35,026 bases of DNA, taken from Fidelibacterota bacterium. Lineage in GTDB: Bacteria > Fidelibacterota > UBA2242. The stretch lies in assembly GCA_043808945.1 (NCBI GenBank), contig JAZDEI010000292.1:1-35026 (forward strand), in the 5' to 3' direction. The translations under genes were made by a program, and so were the position numbers. Below the pieces are notes generated by a model that saw nothing but the letters and a program-made list of their open reading frames with translations, had not been told where the DNA came from and made no database searches. Below, piece after piece: positions 10,501 through 30,590 of this stretch (position 1 is its first letter; the number at the start of each line of letters is the position of its first letter).

Positions 10501-10983
10501 TTACTTAGTACCCTGTAAACGGATCGAGCGGATCAAATTCGTCATTTCGATCATGTTCAACGCGGCATCCCAACCCTTATTACCGGCTTTTGTGCCGGCT
10601 CGTTCCAAGGCCTGTTCGATATTTTCAGTCGTCAGCACACCAAAAATCACCGGCACATCCGAATCAATGGATAACCGGGCAATTCCTTTGGAAGCTTCAT
10701 TGGCGACCATATCAAAATGCGGCGTTGCGCCGCGAATGACGGCCCCGAGACAAATTACACCATCGAATTGTCCGGAATTGGCGAGTTCGCGGGCGATCCG
10801 GGGAATTTCGAATGCGCCCGGCACCCAGTAAAGATGGATGTCGTTTTCATCCGCGCCGTGTCTTTTCAGGCAATCCAGCGCCCCGGAAAGCAATTCTTTT
10901 GTAATCATATCGTTGAAGCGGCTGGCAACGATCGCTACTTTCATTTTCTCGGCGGAAAGTACGCCTTCATGCAATTTAGTCAT
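10501..10983 (-). CDS. ribH: 6,7-dimethyl-8-ribityllumazine synthase
   Basis: 160 aa: [30 protein letters not shown]...VPGAFEIP...[18 protein letters not shown]. It overlaps the ribBA stop by 8 nt. Confidence 0.95.
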
Positions 10984-12196
10984 TTGACACCTGTTTATTT
11001 TTTAAGATTAAATGTCCCATTTTATCGCGCTTGGTCTTGAGATATTTTTCATTTTTCGGATTGGGCGGAATCTCGATCGAAATCCGCTCGACAATCTCAA
11101 GATTGAATCCCTGAAGTCCAATGATCTTTTTCGGATTGTTGGTCAACAGGCGCATTTTACGCACTCCCAGATCGGATAGAATCTGGGCGCCCATGCCGTA
11201 ATCGCGCAGGTCAGCTAAAAAGCCCAGCTTGATGTTGGCTTCGACGGTATCCATACCTTCATCCTGCAATTTATAAGCGGAGATTTTATGCCGTAGTCCG
11301 ATCCCGCGTCCCTCCTGTCGCAAATATAATACGACCCCGCGACCGGCCTTGGCGACGATTTCGAGGGCTTTATGAAGCTGGTCGCCGCAATCGCATCGCA
11401 GGGAACCGAAAACATCGCCGGTCAGGCATTCCGAATGAACACGCACCATTACCGGATCGTGTGTGCGGACATCACCCATGACCATTGCGACATGCTCCTT
11501 TTCGGTCAATTTATCGATATAAACGACAATCCTGAAAACACCGAATTGCGTCGGCAGATCGGCTTCACTCACCCGTTCGATGTAACGCTCGGTCTTGCGG
11601 CGATACTCGATCAGATCCTGTACGGTAATTATCTTGACGCCGTGCGCTTGTGCAATTTGTTCCAGAGTCTCACCGCGCGCCATTTCCCCGTTTTCATCCA
11701 TAATTTCACACATGACGCTGACCGGAGTCAATCCCGCCATTCGGGCCAGATCGACCGAGGCTTCTGTATGACCGGCGCGCCGCAAAACGCCGCCCGATCG
11801 GGCAACGATGGGAAAAATATGTCCCGGCCGGCCGAAGTCTTCCGGTTTCGTGCGTGGATCGGCCAATGCGTTAATCGTTACTGCCCGGTCGTAAGCTGAA
11901 ATACCCGTCGTGGTACCTTGCTTCAAGTCCACGCTGACCGTAAAGCGGGTATTGTGCAGAGCAGTGTTTTCCTGCACCATCAATTTCAGATCGAGCTCTT
12001 TAGCCCGCTCCTCGTTAAGTCCGGCACACAGCAGACCGCGGGCATATTTCGCCATGAAATTGACGGAAACCGGCGTGACTTTCTCGGCCGCCATGATAAA
12101 ATCGCCCTCGTTTTCGCGATTCTCGTCATCGACGACGATCACGAAACGACCGTTTTTTATTTCGTCGATAGCGGCTTTTATCGAATCAAATCTCAT
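10976..12196 (-). CDS. ribBA: Bifunctional 3,4-dihydroxy-2-butanone-4-phosphate synthase / GTP cyclohydrolase II
   Basis: 406 aa. The DHBP synthase half reads [22 protein letters not shown]...[15 protein letters not shown]. The GCH-II half reads [23 protein letters not shown]...[11 protein letters not shown]. Confidence 0.95.
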
Positions 12197-12223: not shown

Positions 12224-12865
12224 CTATTGGCTGAATCCCCAGTGTTTTACTCTTTCGAAGGTTAAAGGTTCTTTGGGCGGCCGGCCGACCATATTTTCGA
12301 TGTATTTGGCAAGAATATCAACTTCAAGATTGACGTAATCACCGACTTTTTTCAGACCAAGATTAGTTCCGGACAGCGTCGCCGGGATCAATGCCACCTG
12401 CACTTCATTATTTTCGATTTCGGCGACTGTCAGACTAATGCCGTTAATGGTCAGCGAGCCTTTTACCACAATATAATTTTGAATCGAATCGGGAACCGCG
12501 ATACGCAGAGTTCCGGCGGAGCCTTCGTGTTTCAGCGCAACGATCGGCGCCATCGCGTCCACATGTCCCTGCACAAAATGGCCGCCGAAACGACCATCGG
12601 CCGCCATAGCCCGTTCGAGATTGACACGGTCGTCGCGTCGTAAAATAGCCAGGGTTGTGCGGGAAAGAGTTTCGCTAACCGCTTGCGCTTCGAAAAAGTC
12701 TGTTCCGAACGTTTCGGCCGTCAGACAAACGCCATCGACGGCGATACTGTCGCCTTCCTGCAAATCGCTTAAAATTCTTTTAGCGGCGATCCTGAAGCGG
12801 CGGCCTTCGGCGTTATCGGTAATACCGCGAATTTCACCGATCTCTTCGATAATTCCGGTAAACAT
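12224..12865 (-). CDS. ribE: Riboflavin synthase (alpha chain)
   Basis: The canonical N-terminus MFTGIIEEIGEI begins at the ATG 12865-12863. That ATG overlaps the ribD stop by one nt (TGATG). The track ORF (to 12922) adds 19 residues that lie inside ribD. Confidence 0.9.
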   Translation of the reverse strand: MFTGIIEEIGEIRGITDNAEGRRFRIAAKRILSDLQEGDSIAVDGVCLTAETFGTDFFEAQAVSETLSRTTLAILRRDDRVNLERAMAADGRFGGHFVQGHVDAMAPIVALKHEGSAGTLRIAVPDSIQNYIVVKGSLTINGISLTVAEIENNEVQVALIPATLSGTNLGLKKVGDYVNLEVDILAKYIENMVGRPPKEPLTFERVKHWGFSQ

Positions 12866-13950
12866 CAGGTCAATTTCCCCTGTAAGAGTACGTCGGCGCC
12901 CAATTGCTCGACCCGTTCCCATTCTACCGTGACGGCTTGGTCAAGCGATTTCATCAAACCGGACAGCGCCCGTAATCCTTCGCCCAGAATTTTTGGTGCG
13001 ACGAAAATCTGTAATTCATCGACCAATCGCTGAGCGATCAGCGAGCCGGCGAGTTGACTGCCGCCTTCGCAGTAAATTGAAGTAATTCCGAATTCAGCCA
13101 ATTTCCCGAGTGCGTCCGGTAATGCCAGCCAGCCGAATTCATCTTTTGGACTATTGATTATTTTTATATTGCCGGCCTGATACTGACGAATTTTTTCCGT
13201 CTTATCGTTACAATCCGTGACAATCACCGTCCGATGGCGGAATTCATCTGTCACTAACTGCATTCGCGGCGGCATATTCAGGGCTTCATCCAGCACGACC
13301 CGGTAGGGAATAAAACCGGAACGATCTTCCGGTAAAAGCGCCGGATCGTCTTTATAAATCGTGCCCATTCCAACCATCACGGCGTCATGCCTGAGGCGTT
13401 GATCCAAAACGAACCGGCGGGCTTCATTTCCCGTAATCCAGCGACTCTTTCCGGTGGCATCAGCGATAAATCCATCGATAGTCAGGGCTAATTTCAGTGT
13501 GATCCAGGGCCGCTTCTTTTCCATAAAAGTAAAGAATCCGCGATTGACCCGACGGGCTTCGTCTTCCAGAACTCCCACCTGAACTTTCAGCCCGGCGTCT
13601 TCCAGGATTTTAACGCCAGCCCCGCTAACACGCGGATTCGGATCGATTGTGCCGATGTAAACTTCGCGGATTCCAGCTTTGATGATGGCATCCACGCAAG
13701 GCGGCGTCTTGCCGTAGTAACAGCACGGTTCCAGGTTGACATAAAGAGCGGCGTTCCGGGCGGCTTCTCCGGCCTGCGCCAGCGCCATGACTTCGGCGTG
13801 AGGAGCACCGAAATGGACATGAAACCCCTCACCGACGACTATTCCGTCATCCACGATTAAAGCACCCACGACCGGATTAGGACTCGTAAAACCGCGCCCT
13901 TTTTCCGCCAGTTCCAGAGTTCGTTTCAGCCATTTTTCCGTTTGATTCAT
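12865..13950 (-). CDS. ribD: Bifunctional diaminohydroxyphosphoribosylaminopyrimidine deaminase / 5-amino-6-(5-phosphoribosylamino)uracil reductase
   Basis: The deaminase motif is HAEVMAL...PCCYYGKTPPC, and a reductase half follows. I place the start at ATG 13950 (MNQTEKWLKRTLELAEKGRGFTSPNPVVGALIV). The spacing to the PNP motif then matches E. coli and B. subtilis RibD N-termini. The track start at 13983 lies inside the riboswitch P1/terminator region. Confidence 0.9.
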   Translation of the reverse strand: MNQTEKWLKRTLELAEKGRGFTSPNPVVGALIVDDGIVVGEGFHVHFGAPHAEVMALAQAGEAARNAALYVNLEPCCYYGKTPPCVDAIIKAGIREVYIGTIDPNPRVSGAGVKILEDAGLKVQVGVLEDEARRVNRGFFTFMEKKRPWITLKLALTIDGFIADATGKSRWITGNEARRFVLDQRLRHDAVMVGMGTIYKDDPALLPEDRSGFIPYRVVLDEALNMPPRMQLVTDEFRHRTVIVTDCNDKTEKIRQYQAGNIKIINSPKDEFGWLALPDALGKLAEFGITSIYCEGGSQLAGSLIAQRLVDELQIFVAPKILGEGLRALSGLMKSLDQAVTVEWERVEQLGADVLLQGKLT

Positions 13951-13974
13951 AAAAAAAACCCGATTGCGCTCGGG
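13951..13974 (-). terminator. Intrinsic terminator acting as the expression platform of the FMN riboswitch
   Basis: The minus strand reads CCCGAGCGCAATCGGG followed by TTTTTTTT. This is a 5-bp GC-rich stem and a 6-nt loop, with a U8 tract that abuts the ribD ATG. Confidence 0.6.
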
Positions 13975-13979
13975 ATTAT

Positions 13980-14100
13980 TCATCTTCTTCCATCCGGACT
14001 TTTACCGTCGGTGTCTGGGTTTCACAGACTCGGCCCCGCTTTCAGCAGGACTCGCGGACTTTGACCGCCGGTCAGGATTTTCACCCTGCCCCGAAGACGC
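13980..14100 (-). promoter_or_regulatory. FMN riboswitch (RFN element) upstream of ribD
   Basis: The minus strand reads GCGTCTTCGGGGCAGGGTGAAAATCCTGACCGGCGGTCAAAGTCCGCGAGTCC...GTGAAACCCAGACACCGACGGTAAAAGTCCGGATGGAAGAAGA. This matches the conserved RFN core blocks (TCTTCGGGGCAGGGTGAAATTCC.GACCGGCGGT...AGCCCGCGAGC...CCGACAGT.AAAGTCTGGATGG.AGAAGA). It includes the P1 pairing TCTTC/GAAGA. Confidence 0.92.
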
Positions 14101-14106
14101 GAACGT

Positions 14107-15540: not shown

Positions 15541-15575
15541 GCATTAGAATGAGAGTCGAAAAAGGAAGGCATTCG

Positions 15576-17408
15576 GTGAAATTGAAAAAAGAACTCAGAT
15601 TACTGGATGTATTTTGTATCGCCAGCGGCTCGATGATCAGTTCCGGCCTGTTCATTTTGCCTGGCCTGGCGCAAGCCCTGAGCGGCCCTTCGGTTTTCAT
15701 TGCATATTTAATTGCCGGACTCTTAGCCGCAACGGGAATGCTCAGTCAGGCCGAACTGGTTTCAGCCATGCCGAAAGCCGGCGGCACTTATTTTCACTCG
15801 ACGCGCAGTATGGGTCCATTGGTCGGAACCGTTGACGGTATTCTGACCTGGGTTTCATTATCGCTTAAAAGCGCCTTCGCACTGGTCGGGATGGCAGTCC
15901 TGGCCAGATTGTTTATCAATTTTAATATTCATTTTCTGTCGATAATGCTGTGTCTGGTCTTCATCGGATTGAATCTGGTTGGATTAAAAGAGGCCAGCCG
16001 ATTCCAGATATTTCTCGTGTTGACCCTGTTCGCTATCCTGGTTTTGTATATATTTAACGGTATCCCGGCGGTGGATGTGCGGCGCTTCCACCCTTTTACG
16101 CCACACGGAATTTCCAGTCTCTTCGGTACAGCCGGTTTCGTTTTCATTTCCTACGGTGGTTTGCTGAAAATTTCCAGTATCGCCGAAGAGGTTCAAGATT
16201 CGGGAAAGATACTCCCGCGGGCCATGATTCTTTCCCTGCTGACAGTGACCGCATTATATATGCTGGTAGTCATGGTCACGACCGGAATCTTACCAGCTGA
16301 ACGGGTGGAAGGCTCATTATTTCCGCTAATTGACGGAGCCGGAGAAATTCTCGGCCTGCCGGGAACAATTATCATGGGCATCGGAGCGACGCTGGCCTTC
16401 ATTGCCACGGCAAACGCCGGTATCATGTCGGCCTCCCGCTTCCCGCTGGCTTTGAGCCGGGACGGCCTGGTCCCGTCGGTGCTCGGTCACATCAATCAGC
16501 GGTTCGGCACGCCGCATATATCCGTCATCACTACCGGCCTGTTCATGATTCTGGCCTTATTTCTGAAAATCGATCTGCTGGTCAAGGTTACTTCTACAAT
16601 ATTAATTATTACCTACGTCCTGAGTTGCTTATCGATAATCCTGCTGCGCGAAAGCCGTTTACAGAATTACCAGCCAATTTTCAAGGCTCCCTTCTATCCA
16701 GTTATGCAAATCATCGGTTTGTTGGGATTTGGATATTTGATTTACAGCATGGGTCGGCCGGCACTGCTTTCCAGTCTGGCATTTATCCTTTTTGGAGTGG
16801 CTGTTTACTGGTTTTACGGACGAAACGCCGTAAAAGGCGAATATGCACTGCTCCACCTGATCGAACGTCTGACCAGCATGGATCTGACTAAAAACTTACT
16901 GGAGAGCGAACTCAAGGAAATAATCCGCGAACGGGATGATATTATCCAGGACCGTTTCGATAGTATAATCGAAGATTGCCAGGTTATTGATTATAACGCC
17001 AGCCTAACAACCATCGAACTATTTCAAAATGTCGCGGATAAGATCGCGGTCAGTTTGAACCTGGATGCTGACGAATTGACCCGACAATTGCTGGAACGTG
17101 AATCGGAAAGCAGTACGGCCATCACACCGCATCTTGCCATTCCGCACCTAATTATAGACGGTAAAGAAACATTTGACATTCTGCTTGTCCGCAATCGACA
17201 AGGCATTTATTTTTCTGAAAATTCACCGGCCGTGGAAGCCGTACTTTTCCTCTTCGGGTCCAAAGACGAGCGTAATTTTCACCTGAAAGCCCTGTCATCA
17301 ATTGCCCAGATTATACAGGAATCCGGATTTCTCGAAAAATGGCGGAACGCCAAAAACGCACAATCTTTACGTGATATCTTTCTGCTCGGTAAACGCATCC
17401 GGCAGTGA
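15576..17408 (+). CDS. APC-superfamily amino acid permease fused to a C-terminal PTS EIIA type-2 (PtsN/fructose-mannitol type) domain
   Basis: The N-terminal roughly 430 aa have 12-TM permease features (LLDVFCIASGSMISSGLFILPG, multiple hydrophobic helices). The C-terminal roughly 150 aa carry an EIIA-2 signature, with the phospho-acceptor-type His in ESSTAITPHLAIPHL (His codon 17145-17147). My preferred start is GTG 15576, which has AAGGAAGG 6 nt upstream. The track ATG at 15549 sits only 8-9 nt after the predicted -10 box. Confidence 0.8.
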   Translation: MKLKKELRLLDVFCIASGSMISSGLFILPGLAQALSGPSVFIAYLIAGLLAATGMLSQAELVSAMPKAGGTYFHSTRSMGPLVGTVDGILTWVSLSLKSAFALVGMAVLARLFINFNIHFLSIMLCLVFIGLNLVGLKEASRFQIFLVLTLFAILVLYIFNGIPAVDVRRFHPFTPHGISSLFGTAGFVFISYGGLLKISSIAEEVQDSGKILPRAMILSLLTVTALYMLVVMVTTGILPAERVEGSLFPLIDGAGEILGLPGTIIMGIGATLAFIATANAGIMSASRFPLALSRDGLVPSVLGHINQRFGTPHISVITTGLFMILALFLKIDLLVKVTSTILIITYVLSCLSIILLRESRLQNYQPIFKAPFYPVMQIIGLLGFGYLIYSMGRPALLSSLAFILFGVAVYWFYGRNAVKGEYALLHLIERLTSMDLTKNLLESELKEIIRERDDIIQDRFDSIIEDCQVIDYNASLTTIELFQNVADKIAVSLNLDADELTRQLLERESESSTAITPHLAIPHLIIDGKETFDILLVRNRQGIYFSENSPAVEAVLFLFGSKDERNFHLKALSSIAQIIQESGFLEKWRNAKNAQSLRDIFLLGKRIRQ

Positions 17409-27221: not shown

Positions 27222-28235
27222 ATGACGAATTCTATCAACACCGGAACATCTTATTTTGGTAGTCGCATCCTGCGTCACGTCAAAGCCGATATGCGCAAAC
27301 TTAAGTATCAGGGCTTTGATTTCGTCATACATACTTTCTCGGAATACGATTACACTTATCATCGCGGCAATATCGCGGACATTGTCGATGTCACCCATGA
27401 AAGCGGCTTAAAGGTTTATCTCGATCCATGGGGCGTCGGGAATGTCTTTGGCGGTGAGCCGTTCTCCGACTTCGTAACCGAGCATTTTCAGGACAGTTGC
27501 CAATTGCTCGACAATGGCCAGCGTGTTCACCTCGCTTGTCCGAATGCTCCGGAATTTCAGCGATTTATGCAAGACTGGTTAACGGTAGCAATTACAACCG
27601 GTGCGGATGGAATTCTATGGGATGAGCCGCATTTTCACAGCCCGAGTCATCTCAAAGGCCAATCCGGTCGCTGGGGATGCCGCTGTGAACATTGCCAGAA
27701 AATATTCATGACGAAAAACGCAAAACCACTGTCACAGATCGAAGATGATCAGGTCAGAGCCTTCAGGATCGAAAGTTTAGTCGCATTCTTAGAATCGCTG
27801 AGCGTCAGAAGCAGCGCGGCCGGTTTGCAAAATATCCTGTTCCTAACGGCCGACCAGCCGGCGGAAACCGTTTATCGGGACTGGCAGCACTATGCAAAAA
27901 TCCGATCGCTGGATGTCATATCGACCGGACCGTACTGGATGTGGGCCGGTCTGCCGCTTGAATCGGTGCGGGATTACGCTCTGATATTAAAGCGGATTGC
28001 CACCGAAAACTCTAAAGATCATTTATTCTGGATTCAATGCTGTAAAATTAAGGCTGAACGCAATGCCGAGATCAGGCAGGCGATCGAAATGGCTCACCAG
28101 TCCGGAATGTGCAATTTCGCCTTATGGGGTTTCGAGGGTTGCGCGGCCGAATCCTGGATTGCCTGCGATAATCCGGCACAGGCCTGGCGAACTGCAATCA
28201 GTGCGTTCAATTCATTAAAGCACAAATTAACTTGA
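27222..28235 (+). CDS. Hypothetical TIM-barrel glycoside-hydrolase-like protein (clan GH-A, GH42-like catalytic-domain-only, with a Cys4 motif)
   Basis: 337 aa. The segment ILWDEPHF (Glu135) resembles the NE[P/Y] acid/base strand of clan GH-A. Cys106 (HLACPNAP) together with C153-x-C155-x2-C158 (WGCRCEHCQ) resembles the Zn-binding Cys cluster described for GH42 beta-galactosidases. I cannot see a trimerisation or C-terminal domain, and no confident nucleophile Glu. Confidence 0.45.
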   Translation: MTNSINTGTSYFGSRILRHVKADMRKLKYQGFDFVIHTFSEYDYTYHRGNIADIVDVTHESGLKVYLDPWGVGNVFGGEPFSDFVTEHFQDSCQLLDNGQRVHLACPNAPEFQRFMQDWLTVAITTGADGILWDEPHFHSPSHLKGQSGRWGCRCEHCQKIFMTKNAKPLSQIEDDQVRAFRIESLVAFLESLSVRSSAAGLQNILFLTADQPAETVYRDWQHYAKIRSLDVISTGPYWMWAGLPLESVRDYALILKRIATENSKDHLFWIQCCKIKAERNAEIRQAIEMAHQSGMCNFALWGFEGCAAESWIACDNPAQAWRTAISAFNSLKHKLT

Positions 28236-28269: not shown

Positions 28270-29700
28270 ATGGAACTGTACAAAGAAAATCATTTAATCC
28301 GATTGTTCGAAGGCTGGGCCGCTGAAAGCGCCCGGAGTATTTCCGCCCTCCCGCTCTCCGGATCGTATCGTGAGTATTACCGGATTACCGGAGAAAAAAG
28401 AACCGCGCTCGGCGTCTTTAATCCCGATCGTAAAGAGAACACGGCCTTTATCGAATTCGCCCGGCATTTCCGTGCGATCGGATTGAACGTCCCGGAAATT
28501 TATGCCGAGGAAGCCAAAAATAACGTTTACCTCATTGAAGATCTCGGCGACCTGACACTGTACGCCTACTTAACGCAGGTTTACCAAAACGGTATTTTTC
28601 CCAAAAATCTGATAGAAGTATATAAAAAGACCATCGTCCAACTGCCGCGTTTTCAGATTCTGGCCGGCAAAGACCTGAATTATAACCACTGTTATCCGCG
28701 TGCCAGTTTCGACAAACGCTCGATGATGTGGGACCTGAATTATTTCAAATATTACTTCCTGAAATTAGCGAAAGTCAATTATGACGAACAGGAACTGGAA
28801 GACGATTTCCAGAAATTCAGCGATTATCTCCTGCAAACCGATTGCAATTACTTTCTCTATCGCGATTTCCAATCGCGCAATATCATGCTGGTTCACGGAG
28901 AACCGTATTTCATCGATTTCCAGGGTGGCCGCAAAGGCGCTTTACAATACGACATCGCTTCTCTGCTCTATGACGCCAAAGCCGACATTCCCCAGCATAT
29001 CCGGAACGTACTCCTGCAGGAATATATCCGGCAGGTCGGCCAACTCGTCAACATCGACGAAAAGTCATTTACCGAATATTATTGGGGATACGTCCTGATC
29101 CGCATCATGCAGGCCATGGGTTCATACGGATTCCGGGGATTTTACGAGAAAAAAGAACATTTCCTGCGCAGTATTCCCTTCGCTATTGCCAATCTGAATT
29201 ATATCCTGAACACCGTAACCCTGCCGGTTGAAATTCCGACGCTATGGAAAATCCTGAACAGAATCGCTGACTCACCGCAATTGAAAACCTTTCAAAAAAC
29301 GCCCAGCTCATTGAAAGTCACGATCAACAGCTTCGCTTATAAAAAGAACATTCCGGCCGATACGAGTGGCAACGGCGGCGGTTTTGTGTTCGATTGCCGG
29401 GCGATCCTTAATCCGGGACGCTATGAAAAATACAAAACGTTGGACGGGCGCCATCCGGCTGTAATCCGGTTTCTGAAAGAAGAAACCGACATCGATGAAT
29501 TTATGAGCCACGTCTATGCTCTCGTGGAGCGCAGTGTCAACGATTATATCGAGCGAAAATTCACCAGTCTGGTGGTTAATTTCGGGTGCACCGGCGGACA
29601 ACACCGCTCGGTATTCTGCGCTGAAGAACTCAGCCGTTATCTTATGAGCAAATACGATATCAGGATCGAATTGCATCATACCGAACTCGAGAACATGTAA
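28270..29700 (+). CDS. AmgK-like (APH-fold) anomeric amino-sugar kinase fused to a RapZ C-terminal domain
   Basis: 476 aa. The N-terminal part has APH/AmgK motifs: LSGSYREYYRI, VYLIEDLGD, LYRDFQSRNIML and FIDFQGGRKGALQYDIASLLYDA. The C-terminal roughly 135 aa align by eye with E. coli RapZ residues after about 150: INSFAYKKNIP...FVFDCRAILNPG against FESFGFKHGIP...YVFDVRFLPNP; GCTGGQHRSVFCAEELSRYL against [20 protein letters not shown]; and HHTELE against HRTLE. No Walker A motif is present. Confidence 0.8.
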   Translation: MELYKENHLIRLFEGWAAESARSISALPLSGSYREYYRITGEKRTALGVFNPDRKENTAFIEFARHFRAIGLNVPEIYAEEAKNNVYLIEDLGDLTLYAYLTQVYQNGIFPKNLIEVYKKTIVQLPRFQILAGKDLNYNHCYPRASFDKRSMMWDLNYFKYYFLKLAKVNYDEQELEDDFQKFSDYLLQTDCNYFLYRDFQSRNIMLVHGEPYFIDFQGGRKGALQYDIASLLYDAKADIPQHIRNVLLQEYIRQVGQLVNIDEKSFTEYYWGYVLIRIMQAMGSYGFRGFYEKKEHFLRSIPFAIANLNYILNTVTLPVEIPTLWKILNRIADSPQLKTFQKTPSSLKVTINSFAYKKNIPADTSGNGGGFVFDCRAILNPGRYEKYKTLDGRHPAVIRFLKEETDIDEFMSHVYALVERSVNDYIERKFTSLVVNFGCTGGQHRSVFCAEELSRYLMSKYDIRIELHHTELENM

Positions 29701-29733: not shown

Positions 29734-29775
29734 AGTTTACAGTTTACAGTTTACAGTTCAGAGTTTACAGTTTGT
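29734..29775. repeat. Tandem heptanucleotide repeat, (AGTTTAC)n, 6 units
   Basis: The units read AGTTTAC AGTTTAC AGTTTAC AGTTCAG AGTTTAC AGTTTGT, giving 4 perfect and 2 degenerate copies. The repeat is intergenic, 34 nt after the kinase stop and about 90 nt before the next ATG. Confidence 0.9.
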
Positions 29776-29864: not shown

Positions 29865-30590
29865 ATGAAAGCCATGCTTCTGGCCGCCGGGCTGGGTAAA
29901 CGGCTAAAACCATTGACCGATCACACTCCGAAAGCATTGATTCCGGTCAATGGCACTTCCCTGCTCGAAATCGCAATTGGCTATTTAGCTCGTTTCGGTT
30001 TTAACGAAATCATCATCAATGTTCATCACCATGCCGGACAGGTAAAAGATTTTCTTGAAAGTAAACGTTTCTTCGGCCTCCATATTGAAATCTCCGATGA
30101 AACCGACCGTCTGCTCGATACCGGCGGCGGATTGAAAAAAGCCGCCTGGTTTTTTGATCAGAATGAACCTTTTCTCGTTTACAATGTCGATATTCTAAGC
30201 GATTTGAATCTCCGCGATTTTTATCAGGCGCATATAAAATCCGACGCGTTGGCGACATTAGCTGTTCGCAACCGTCCGACCCAGAGGTTTCTGCTTTTCG
30301 ATGCGGATAATTTCCTCTGCGGCTGGCAGAACGTTAAAACCGGGAAAACGATCAGCGCCCGGCCGGCCACCTCTACATTGCGACAGTTAGCTTTCAGTGG
30401 CATCCACGTGCTCGGTCCGGCCATTCTGAAGCATTTCCCGCCGGAAGATGTTTTCTCATTAATTGACCTGTACCTTCGACTCGCCCCGGATTATCCAATT
30501 AAATGTTACCGGCACAATGCTTCCCGTTGGTTGGACGTTGGGAAACCGGAAAATCTCGCCGAAGCCGGAGAATTTCTGGCCGCTTACTGA
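29865..30590 (+). CDS. murU: Sugar-1-phosphate nucleotidyltransferase, MurU-like (N-acetylmuramate alpha-1-phosphate uridylyltransferase family)
   Basis: 241 aa. The N-terminal motif is MKAMLLAAGLGKRLKPLTDHTPKALIPVNG, and a short single-domain NTP_transferase fold follows. It sits next to an AmgK-like kinase, as in the Pseudomonas amgK-murU pair. The symbol is tentative. Confidence 0.7.
   Translation: MKAMLLAAGLGKRLKPLTDHTPKALIPVNGTSLLEIAIGYLARFGFNEIIINVHHHAGQVKDFLESKRFFGLHIEISDETDRLLDTGGGLKKAAWFFDQNEPFLVYNVDILSDLNLRDFYQAHIKSDALATLAVRNRPTQRFLLFDADNFLCGWQNVKTGKTISARPATSTLRQLAFSGIHVLGPAILKHFPPEDVFSLIDLYLRLAPDYPIKCYRHNASRWLDVGKPENLAEAGEFLAAY

Follow-up and report, generated by a model that had tools for sequence, protein, structure and literature searches.

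In the MurU salvage pathway, AmgK phosphorylates MurNAc and GlcNAc at the anomeric position. The kinase is known from P. putida and P. aeruginosa, as lpg0296 from L. pneumophila and as CCNA_03649 from C. crescentus, and in both Caulobacter and Legionella the amgK and murU genes lie side by side (PMC13046382, PMC11957156). The proteobacterial AmgK, an enzyme of ~38 kDa, works without a RapZ-type domain (PMC11957156). The AmgK/MurU pathway has also been reported in Bacteroides species and in T. forsythia (PMC8054146, PMC7670621). Published accounts of the T. forsythia AmgK that we found give neither a locus tag nor a length for the protein.

RapZ/YvcJ proteins are conserved across bacteria, and to our knowledge their mechanism is understood only in the Enterobacteriaceae, where RapZ acts as an sRNA adaptor. 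Canonical rapZ/yvcJ genes are found in a rpoN/ptsN or a yvcK/whiA context. The C-terminal domain (CTD) of E. coli RapZ binds GlcN6P by itself, with a KD of about 10 nM (PMC7073468), and it self-dimerises in a manner that requires D182 (PMC5737377, PMC7073468). The roles of residues D182, R184 and H190 of the E. coli protein have been described (PMC5737377, PMC7073468, PMC9841335), and this work also hints at a chemical activity that is as yet unexplained (PMC9841335). The pocket of RapZ is conserved beyond the Enterobacteriaceae, unlike the RNA-binding tail (PMC7073468). A remote structural relative of the RapZ-CTD is the fructose-6-phosphate-binding subdomain of 6-phosphofructokinase, with which the pocket is not shared (Gonzalez et al. 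2017; PMC5737377).

In this study we describe a gene from a Fidelibacterota bacterium that joins domains related to AmgK and to RapZ in a single polypeptide. The gene lies within a window of 35,026 nucleotides, which is the whole stretch of DNA that was analysed, and its features are collected in the table below. We compare the encoded protein with AmgK and with RapZ/YvcJ, and weigh several explanations for the presence of a RapZ-type domain on a probable amino-sugar kinase.

Domain architecture of the fusion protein

The fusion gene is an uninterrupted open reading frame with an ATG start and with the stop codon inside its coordinates. The original prediction held that an AmgK-like kinase of the aminoglycoside phosphotransferase (APH) fold here takes the place of the P-loop domain of RapZ, and Pfam, NCBIfam, PDB sequence searches and Foldseek agree on this point. 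The APH family scores 45 bits against a cut-off of 23.2, and the RapZ C-terminal family PF22740 scores 107 bits against a cut-off of 27 with profile positions 1-120 of 121 covered; the two matches lie essentially where they had been expected (residues ~20-300 and ~340-476). All of the motifs that had been quoted are present, both in the kinase (SGSYREYYRI, YLIEDLGD, YRDFQSRNIML, FIDFQGG and YDIASLLYD) and in the CTD (FVFDCR..NPG, GCTGGQHRSV and the terminal HHTELENM), and a motif scan of the 476-aa protein found no Walker A sequence ([AG]x4GK[ST]), as had also been claimed. The kinase fold extends over about residues 1-305. An AF2 model of the full-length protein (mean pLDDT 88.8, pTM 0.71) contains linker helices at residues 302-315, 323-333 and 336-339.

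Features of the fusion gene and its immediate neighbours (positions in the 35,026-nucleotide window)
Feature	Position	Strand	Basis
Upstream gene, 337 aa, no Pfam family, lineage-specific	27222..28235	+	ORF list, relatives' loci
Whole fusion ORF, 476 aa: APH-fold kinase, helical linker, RapZ C-terminal domain	28270..29700	+	ORF list, Pfam, AF2
APH (PF01636) match, residues 32-252	28363..29025	+	Pfam, E 1.5e-11
Catalytic loop YRDFQSRN, residues 197-204 (D199, N204)	28858..28881	+	Conservation; translation checked
IDFQGG, residues 215-220	28912..28929	+	Conservation; translation
Variable helical linker, residues 306-347	29185..29310	+	Pairwise identity; AF2 model
RapZ C-terminal domain (PF22740, PapZ_C), residues 348-473	29311..29688	+	Pfam, E 8.5e-31
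Family-specific Gly-rich loop DTSGNGGG, residues 364-371	29359..29382	+	HMMER gap; conservation
DCRAILNPG, residues 375-383	29392..29418	+	Alignment to E. coli RapZ; conservation
Anion-pocket loop GCTGGQHRSV, residues 439-448	29584..29613	+	Conservation; AF2 model; motif scan
Heptamer tandem repeat AGTTTAC x 5.7	29734..29773	.	TRF score 66
MurU-like sugar-1-phosphate nucleotidyltransferase, partner gene	29865..30590	+	NCBIfam, PDB search, synteny

The kinase domain shares with AmgK the APH/eukaryotic-like kinase fold and retains the catalytic Asp, the Asn and the metal-binding Asp; D199, N204, D216 and Q218 are conserved in 100% of 132 diverse sequences, with D216 the counterpart of the metal-binding Asp in the DFG-like motif. 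Foldseek returned only APH-fold kinases as top matches, led by 3csv (TM 0.80 on the target, ~20% identity), and 3csv was also recovered when the PDB was searched with the protein sequence (E 2e-19). The best kinase matches in NCBIfam are two AmgK models, NF045759 and NF045698, with scores that are far under their equivalog cut-offs (63.0 versus 550 bits and 54.9 versus 500 bits, respectively), so MurNAc/GlcNAc is best described as a putative substrate. The fusion protein further differs from AmgK by its extra RapZ-type domain of ~130 aa and a linker of ~40 aa, giving 476 aa in total compared with proteobacterial enzymes of roughly 38-39 kDa (PMC11957156).

The CTD is homologous to that of RapZ/YvcJ, whose fold it shares. 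The match to the NCBIfam RapZ model NF003828 is confined to the C-terminal half of that model (positions 152-277, 95.6 bits versus a 244-bit cut-off), and a PDB sequence search recovered the E. coli RapZ-CTD structure 5o5s with an E value of 4e-12. When the CTD was modelled alone (pLDDT 90.9) it superposed on 5o5s with an rmsd of 1.9 A, TM scores of 0.79/0.90 and 31% identity. The fructose-6-phosphate-binding subdomain of 6-phosphofructokinase is not significant against the CTD (E about 0.5-1, TM about 0.35). A PTP-like fold (PTP, LMW-PTP or rhodanese-type) was also considered for the CTD and rejected, with Foldseek matching phosphatase chains at an E value of about 1 and a probability of 0.02-0.08.

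Spread of the architecture and its gene neighbourhood

Full-length relatives of the fusion protein are present in at least 588 species-level genomes from the Bacteroidota, Ignavibacteriota, Calditrichota, Marinimicrobia and KSB3, and at 50% identity there are ~830 matching clusters. The best 120 database homologues are 470-540 aa in length, with a RapZ C-terminal domain in each and an APH flag on nearly all of them, while 131 further representatives (440-530 aa, 36-50% identity) can be aligned end to end and thousands of metagenomic proteins show the same 470-500 aa architecture. The possibility that a frameshift or an assembly error joined two separate genes is thus negligible, as full-length homologues of matching size and architecture occur in many genomes and in independent assemblies from ENA, JGI, Logan and NCBI, the two parts meet at the natural border of RapZ's N-terminal domain with its C-terminal one, and nothing was found in favour of an artefact. 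Tannerella was not among the matches listed in a search for homologues that started from a Bacteroidales protein of the family or in a cluster look-up.

The original prediction also stated that its author knew of no characterised protein with this architecture. This holds for the literature, where our search found no paper that describes an APH-RapZ_C protein and no ligand-binding, kinetic or other biochemical evidence for any member of the family. It does not hold in the sense of an unrecorded protein, since the architecture is widespread and is already precomputed in Pfam annotations. NCBI names the members either "RapZ C-terminal domain-containing protein" or "RNase adapter RapZ". The latter label, which is attached to many fusion proteins, is almost certainly wrong, and this matters for annotation.

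The only broadly conserved neighbour among 80 listed loci is the MurU-like gene, which lies directly 3' on the same strand in 41 of them (42 of 80 by tblastn) in a pairing that spans several phyla; about half of the listed loci have no adjacent MurU-like gene. The MurU-like protein encoded here has P. putida MurU (4y7t, 9.7e-26) and P. aeruginosa MurU (8hhd) as its best PDB matches, and its best NCBIfam match, NF045761, scores 134.8 bits, under the 250-bit cut-off. As both the AmgK and the MurU scores fall under their cut-offs, the profiles do not establish the substrate. The pairing nevertheless resembles the amgK-murU arrangement of Legionella and Caulobacter, and at least six proteins (P0181, P0202, P0215, P0249, P0270 and P0155) are in-frame APH-RapZ_C-NTP_transferase fusions with the RapZ-type domain flanked by the kinase and the transferase. 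The adjacent genes and the triple fusions lend further support to the AmgK-like assignment. Judging from this adjacency and these in-frame fusions, UDP-MurNAc salvage is most likely supplied with an amino-sugar 1-phosphate by the fusion kinase, as it is by AmgK. In KSB3 a MurA-like gene is found directly upstream of the fusion gene. The murU-like context differs from that of RapZ/YvcJ, and neither rpoN/ptsN nor yvcK/whiA was called beside the fusion gene in the inspected loci of about 13 kb, including those designated L084 and L085.

Immediately upstream of the fusion gene, across a gap of 34 bp, is a gene from a small orphan family (63 matches) that is missing from the 80 other listed loci. 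In L085 it shares a 14-nt overlap with the kinase gene, and in L084 it lies 33 nt upstream; it probably opens an operon of three genes in Marinimicrobia relatives. The 337-aa product gave no Pfam, NCBIfam or PDB match, either singly or as a profile; sub-threshold hints of a TIM barrel, GHL6 and MupG_N were the only signals observed. Downstream, the spacer between the kinase and MurU-like genes is 164 bp in length and contains the heptamer repeat, the pattern of which is unique within the window, while the same spacer is just 2-6 nt in L084 and L085. Consensus scans of the spacer for a terminator or promoter gave nothing above chance. The sole Rfam match in the window is an unrelated FMN riboswitch 14 kb away, with no GlmY or GlmZ, and the window contains no tRNAs.

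Conservation and apparent remodelling of the RapZ-type pocket

Conservation was assessed in a full-length alignment of 132 diverse sequences. Mean pairwise identity is 47% for the CTD, 39% for the kinase and 19% for the linker, and 20 of the 39 positions that are conserved at 97% or above are in the CTD, where they are concentrated in the pocket. By this measure of sequence divergence, constraint acts more strongly on the CTD than on the kinase to which it is attached. The loop GCTGGQHRSV corresponds to G246-V255 of E. coli RapZ (including C247, T248, G249, H252 and R253), and is conserved at 95-99%. Of the residues at the sulphate/malonate (putative GlcN6P) pocket of E. coli RapZ, which are H190, T248, G249, H252 and R253 with C247 nearby, the fusion family retains T441, G442, H445, R446 and C440 at 95-99%. 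Individually, C440 (98%), H445 (98%), R446 (99%), S447 (99%), H470 (98%) and C376 (99%) are near-invariant, although C440 is replaced by Gly in 2 of 30 close homologues. The residues of DCRAILNPG are conserved at 94-99%; among these D375 (99%) is the equivalent of D182, the CTD dimer contact of E. coli, and R377 is the equivalent of R184. In the AF2 model CTGGQHRS is bounded by a strand at residues 433-440 and a helix at residues 446-461, with a loop between them.

Other features depart from RapZ/YvcJ. Besides the exchange of the P-loop domain for an unrelated APH-fold kinase without a Walker A motif, the position of pocket residue H190 is occupied by G383 (94% Gly), C376 is an additional invariant Cys that is specific to this family, and the Gly-rich loop includes five residues that E. 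coli RapZ lacks (HMMER alignment, 5o5s/5o5o); G369, G370 and G371 of the loop are 96-99% conserved, with GGG present in 125 of the 132 sequences. The anion pocket therefore appears to be kept but remodelled, with Gly383 in place of H190 and the insertion nearby in sequence. Because of the His to Gly replacement, the new Gly-rich loop and the second invariant Cys, the ligand or chemistry of this domain may differ from that of RapZ. The basic RNA-binding tail is also missing, with the last 20 residues having a net charge of -2 versus +6 for the E. coli tail, and the domain as a whole is neutral rather than basic (pI 6.6, with a family median of 7.3, versus 9.3 for E. coli).

Possible roles of the RapZ-type domain

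The explanation that we favour, and hold with moderate confidence, is that the fusion gene encodes an AmgK-type kinase of the FCB group with a MurU-like partner, and that the RapZ-type CTD binds a phosphosugar or nucleotide sugar and tunes the kinase. The domain identities, their conservation, the gene linkage and the gene fusions were observed in the sequences; the substrate, the ligand and the regulatory mechanism are inferred as follows. The protein would be an anomeric amino-sugar kinase of the FCB group (Bacteroidota, Ignavibacteriota, Calditrichota and Marinimicrobia) in which the APH-fold domain at the N terminus transfers phosphate from ATP to C1 of salvaged MurNAc and perhaps also of GlcNAc. 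The MurU-like neighbour would then convert the sugar-1-phosphate to a UDP-sugar that enters peptidoglycan synthesis, bypassing MurA and MurB. The CTD, a genuine RapZ-type domain of ~130 residues that appears to have kept the C-T-G-G-x-H-R-S phosphate pocket and that retains the dimer-contact Asp but not the features linked to sRNA binding in E. coli, most likely binds a phosphosugar or nucleotide sugar and regulates or oligomerises the kinase. Candidate ligands are GlcN6P, MurNAc-6P/1P, UDP-GlcNAc and UDP-MurNAc. Ligand binding, probably together with dimerisation, would match kinase output to the pool of cell wall precursors. Such a role would preserve the tie of RapZ/YvcJ to amino-sugar and cell-envelope precursor metabolism.

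An unlikely, though still credible, alternative is that the CTD is an oligomerisation module alone, which forms a dimer or tetramer of the kinase as in RapZ and has no ligand role. Self-dimerisation of the RapZ-CTD through D182 (PMC5737377, PMC7073468) and the 99% conservation of the equivalent D375 are in line with this idea. However, it leaves unexplained a near-invariant pocket loop, H470 and the Gly-rich loop among sequences that are 36-50% identical, and proteobacterial AmgK functions without such a domain (PMC11957156).

It is also doubtful that the kinase and transferase act on another substrate altogether, such as another hexosamine or a sugar used in making LPS, capsule or glycan, with AmgK and MurU merely the nearest named relatives. 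The scores of both proteins well under the NCBIfam equivalog cut-offs, the ~20% identity of the kinase to 3csv and the many loci that lack the partner gene would be expected if this were so. Against it, AmgK and MurU are the top NCBIfam families and MurU is the top PDB match for the transferase, the two genes are paired as amgK and murU are in Caulobacter and Legionella (PMC13046382, PMC11957156), the AmgK/MurU pathway is reported in Bacteroides species and T. forsythia (PMC8054146, PMC7670621), and a MurA-like gene adjoins the fusion in KSB3.

We consider quite improbable an enzymatic role of the RapZ-type domain on a sugar phosphate, for example in dephosphorylating MurNAc-6P (the MupP step). 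Under this reading one polypeptide would perform two successive steps of salvage, the first of them feeding the fused 1-kinase. Cys-dependent phosphatases and arsenate reductases bind phosphate with a C-x5-R-(S/T) loop. The sequence CTGGQHRS at residues 440-447 fits the pattern C-x5-R-[ST] in a motif scan, lies similarly between a beta-strand and an alpha-helix, and has near-invariant Cys, Arg and Ser residues. Moreover, the conservation of C440, H445, R446, S447, H470 and C376 exceeds that of the kinase and is typical of active sites, and in the triple fusions the domain stands between kinase and transferase. The CTD, in contrast to the Cys-dependent phosphatases, has no recognised general-acid loop and no significant Cys-phosphatase fold match (MKP5 and PRL-3 at an E value of about 1 and a probability <0.1), and the two close homologues with Gly at position 440 lack the Cys. 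We also know of no RapZ_C domain for which an enzymatic activity has ever been demonstrated. The likeness to Cys-dependent phosphatases is consequently treated as a resemblance only. A broader version of this idea, which we regard as a long shot, is that the RapZ C-terminal domain was ancestrally an amino-sugar-phosphate-processing domain, not an RNA-binding one, and forms a second catalytic site in the fusion with Cys440, His445, Arg446, Ser447, His470 and Cys376 as candidate catalytic residues. Such a site would act on a 6-phosphorylated sugar of the muramic or glucosamine type, for instance by removing the phosphate of MurNAc-6P instead of MupP, and pass the product to the fused 1-kinase and then to MurU. 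If true, two or three steps of UDP-MurNAc salvage would constitute an "assembly line" on one polypeptide, and the long-sought activity of RapZ/YvcJ outside of the Enterobacteriaceae would be revealed.

The original prediction had left open whether the fusion is a ligand-sensing or allosteric system or an RNA-binding regulator. The former fits better because the pocket is kept while the RNA tail and His190 are missing and the CTD is not basic. An RNA-binding regulator that works like enterobacterial RapZ, handing an sRNA over to a ribonuclease and taking its metabolic input from the kinase domain, is very unlikely: the E. coli pocket does touch the phosphate backbone of GlmZ (PMC9841335), the counterpart of R184 is invariant and basic residues mostly persist at the positions of K170 and R196, but H190, which is essential for GlmZ processing (PMC9841335), is replaced by Gly, the RNA-binding region is reported to be confined to the Enterobacteriaceae (PMC7073468), the tail charge and pI of the domain are those of a non-basic protein, and Rfam gave the FMN riboswitch alone in the window.

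This family amounts to a natural experiment in which a RapZ domain that has the pocket and is without RNA-binding features is carried by a probable amino-sugar kinase. These fusions, some of which also include the next enzyme of UDP-MurNAc salvage, tie the RapZ domain to cell wall sugar phosphates. The fusion family also bears on peptidoglycan salvage in bacteria of the Bacteroidota group, among them Tannerella and other MurNAc auxotrophs, in which this step is a proposed drug target. The fusion protein is, furthermore, tractable for finding the ligand or reaction of the RapZ domain, and could help to show what role this domain has outside of E. coli.

Architecture and distribution of the kinase-RapZ fusion

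The original prediction of an APH-fold kinase joined to a RapZ C-terminal domain (CTD) is borne out by Pfam, NCBIfam and PDB matches that agree with one another and are far beyond chance. Pfam assigns residues 32-252 to the APH phosphotransferase domain (E 1.5e-11) and residues 348-473 to the RapZ C-terminal domain PF22740 ('PapZ_C'; E 8.5e-31), with the latter match spanning profile positions 1-120 of 121 at 107 bits against a 27-bit cut-off. The NCBIfam RapZ model aligned by its C-terminal half only (profile positions 152-277; 95.6 bits against a cut-off of 244), while the top NCBIfam kinase matches were two AmgK equivalog models at 63 bits (cut-off 550) and 55 bits (cut-off 500). Sequence searching of the PDB paired residues 28-309 with 3csv, an APH-fold structural-genomics protein (E 2e-19), and residues 347-474 with the E. 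coli RapZ CTD, 5o5s (E 4e-12). The full-length AF2 model is confident (mean pLDDT 88.8, pTM 0.71), and all of its Foldseek matches were APH-fold small-molecule kinases, headed again by 3csv (TM 0.80, target). The predicted absence of a P-loop also holds, as a motif scan of the fusion protein found no Walker A motif.

The top 120 matches in a collection of 5.8 billion proteins are 470-540 aa long and all contain the RapZ CTD, with nearly all also flagged as APH. When 1.84 billion representatives clustered at 50% identity were searched exhaustively with HMMER, 830 clusters reached E <= 1e-30; nearly all of the best 150 are 470-500 aa long, and they align over their whole length at identities as low as 36%. 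Scanning one genome per GTDB species confirmed at least 588 relatives; the best 80 of these derive from Bacteroidota (Marinilabiliales/Prolixibacteraceae, Saprospiraceae, Cyclobacteriaceae and others), Ignavibacteriota, Calditrichota, Marinimicrobia and KSB3, and include cultured strains of Labilibaculum, Mariniphaga, Maribellus, Alkalitalea and Carboxylicivirga. Caldithrix abyssi also encodes a homologue. Among the matches listed, the nearest relatives of the window protein are Marinimicrobia proteins, with 74% identity to a named one, and contigs obtained independently from ENA, JGI and Logan carry a 99%-identical copy with identical neighbours. A frameshift or assembly error joining two genes, which the prediction had allowed for, is excluded given that the same architecture recurs across species and independent assemblies. 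One 718-aa homologue, P0259, has a 3'-5' exonuclease domain (PF01612) N-terminal to APH-RapZ_C; this fusion may be genuine, or it may reflect faulty gene calling.

Coordinates of the features discussed in the text
Feature	Location	Strand	Remarks
Fusion gene	window 28270-29700	+	single ORF, ATG start, 476 codons plus stop
Orphan gene	window 27222-28235	+	directly 5' of kinase gene; 334-337 aa across relatives
Orphan homologue, Marinimicrobia	L084 3963-4967		
Orphan homologue, Marinimicrobia	L085 4001-5014		
AGTTTAC tandem repeat	window 29734-29773		heptamer, 5.7 copies; TRF score 66
MurU-like gene	window 29865-30590	+	small sugar-1-phosphate nucleotidyltransferase; NCBIfam and PDB matches
MurA-like gene, KSB3 'UASB14'	L023 4664-5971	same as fusion gene	immediately 5' of fusion gene; assigned by eye from N-terminal sequence
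FMN riboswitch RF00050	window 13978-14102	-	103.8 bits
ribD-like gene	window 12865-13983		riboflavin operon
ribBA-like gene	window 10976-12196		riboflavin operon
Permease with EIIA-2 domain	window 15549-17408	+	PF13520, PF00359

Linkage to a MurU-like nucleotidyltransferase

Among the best 80 of the at least 588 loci, the sole broadly conserved neighbour is a MurU-like gene, located directly downstream on the same strand at 41 of the 80 by ORF clustering and at 42 by tblastn. For the copy in the window, MurU is the best NCBIfam match (134.8 bits, below the 250-bit cut-off), and the best PDB matches, over the full length, are P. putida MurU 4y7t (9.7e-26) and P. aeruginosa MurU 8hhd. Additionally, at least six representatives of 714-816 aa (homologues P0181, P0202, P0215, P0249, P0270 and P0155) are in-frame APH-RapZ_C-NTP_transferase fusions, which would place two presumed consecutive salvage enzymes on one chain with the RapZ domain between them. 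Adjacent amgK and murU genes are found in Legionella (lpg0296/lpg0295; PMC11957156) and Caulobacter (CCNA_03649/03650; PMC13046382), and T. forsythia and Bacteroides species have been reported to convert MurNAc via MurNAc-alpha-1-P to UDP-MurNAc (PMC7670621, PMC13046382, PMC8054146). It is mainly because of this gene linkage and gene fusion that we call the kinase AmgK-like, and we count such support as indirect because kinase and transferase both fall below curated equivalog thresholds.

Other neighbours are specific to particular lineages. For example, the MurA-like gene of a KSB3 genome would, within KSB3, connect the fusion with the de novo step of UDP-MurNAc formation. Thirteen Prolixibacteraceae-type loci (L018, L024, L050, L051 and related) have no adjacent MurU-like gene and carry at position -1 a divergent conserved membrane protein of ~240 aa with a GGGG motif. 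By eye this membrane protein resembles DUF218/YdcF-ElyC, and a ~236-aa protein downstream in such loci appears YebC-like.

In the window the kinase gene is preceded, after a gap of 34 bp, by an orphan gene without a Pfam, NCBIfam or PDB match. In the Marinimicrobia relatives the orphan and kinase genes overlap by 14 nt or are 33 nt apart, and only ~1-6 nt separate kinase and MurU-like genes; because of this tight packing, gene order suggests a three-gene operon in the Marinimicrobia lineage. The orphan family is small (63 matches, no Pfam model, one member named DUF4015), has a 282-aa variant in loci L081 and L082, and contains invariant D134-E135-P136 and C153-x-C155-x-x-C158. Hints of GHL6, TIM-barrel glycosidase-like and MupG_N similarity are all weak or sub-threshold, and it is conceivable that the product is a glycosidase of the cytoplasm that provides the kinase with its substrate. 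The kinase-MurU-like spacer is expanded to 164 bp in the window and contains a heptamer repeat that is unique within the window. Elsewhere in the window, an FMN riboswitch lies upstream of a riboflavin operon, and an amino-acid permease has a C-terminal PTS EIIA-2 domain, an unusual transporter-regulator combination.

The RapZ-type domain and a proposed mechanism

Conservation was assessed by aligning the window protein with 131 representatives (440-530 aa, 36-50% identity). Conservation is highest in the CTD, where mean pairwise identity is 47% (kinase 39%, linker 19%) and where 20 of the protein's 39 positions with >= 97% conservation lie. Alignment to E. coli RapZ, with residue roles taken from PMC5737377, PMC7073468 and PMC9841335, indicates that the sulphate/malonate (putative GlcN6P) pocket described there is kept in remodelled form: C440 (C247 in E. 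coli; 98%), T441 (T248; 95%), G442 (G249; 98%), H445 (H252; 98%) and R446 (R253; 99%). Also kept are R377 (R184) and D375, the equivalent of D182, which E. coli RapZ requires for CTD self-association (PMC5737377, PMC7073468). Where E. coli has His190, which it needs to process GlmZ (PMC9841335), the fusion family has an invariant glycine (G383). Five inserted residues give rise to a Gly-rich loop, S-G-N-G-G-G (residues 366-371), which is invariant, and a second cysteine is 99% conserved at C376, where E. coli has Val. The fusion CTD lacks the basic C-terminal tail that is the RNA-binding region of enterobacterial RapZ (PMC7073468) and is neutral (pI 6.6, family median 7.3), against a pI of 9.3 for the E. 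coli CTD. A largely kept pocket with the RNA-binding region absent fits, at the level of sequence, the pattern of Khan et al., in which the pocket is widely conserved among RapZ homologues and the RNA-binding region is confined to Enterobacteriaceae (PMC7073468).

Kinase residues D199, N204 and D216 are invariant in the same 132 sequences, and we consider it likely that an active APH-fold kinase phosphorylates an amino sugar, in all likelihood MurNAc, to the 1-phosphate that the MurU-like enzyme would use. The CTD pocket would bind a phosphorylated amino sugar or nucleotide sugar and the CTD, probably as a dimer, would adjust kinase output, in effect acting as a built-in sensor of precursor supply; this role parallels the nanomolar binding of GlcN6P by the isolated E. 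coli CTD (PMC7073468). Kinase and sensor parts taken jointly are the best-supported reading, to which we give an even chance, and within which we infer what the CTD binds and which way it regulates.

A CTD serving purely for oligomerisation is rather unlikely, as it leaves the invariance of the pocket unexplained. The sub-threshold HMM scores leave room for a kinase that acts on another sugar, which we regard as unlikely. It is doubtful that the CTD is itself catalytic: its pocket loop reads C-x5-R-S and is flanked by a strand and a helix (motif scan, AF2 model), its Cys, His, Arg, Ser, His and second Cys are nearly invariant, and for E. coli RapZ the C247S variant is reported to be inactive and GlcN6P bound in the pocket to look 'chemically transformed' (PMC9841335), but the domain has no significant fold similarity to Cys-phosphatases and Gly replaces the pocket Cys in two close homologues. 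With tail and His190 missing and a neutral charge, an RNA adaptor is highly improbable.

Naming and significance of the family

The fusion protein would work like AmgK with an added module, yet it falls below the curated AmgK equivalog threshold, and for this reason we name it AmgK-like and do not treat it as an established AmgK. Nor is it a RapZ, with which it shares the CTD only. Databases list family members as 'phosphotransferase' or 'RapZ C-terminal domain-containing protein', and also as 'RNase adaptor protein for sRNA GlmZ degradation' or 'RNase adapter RapZ'. Because RapZ's P-loop domain and RNA-binding tail are absent, the two RNase names are probably a systematic misannotation or over-annotation of fusion members. 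The APH-RapZ_C architecture is already in domain databases with an NCBI domain-level name, and is thus known to curators. In the searchable literature AmgK and RapZ never co-occur in a paper, and RapZ and Bacteroides co-occur in only two, whose titles and abstracts concern unrelated topics. If T. forsythia AmgK has the fusion architecture, then kinase activity in this family has already been demonstrated and the question narrows to the CTD. Rather than a new type of system, the fusion is a useful handle on the biochemical role of RapZ_C.
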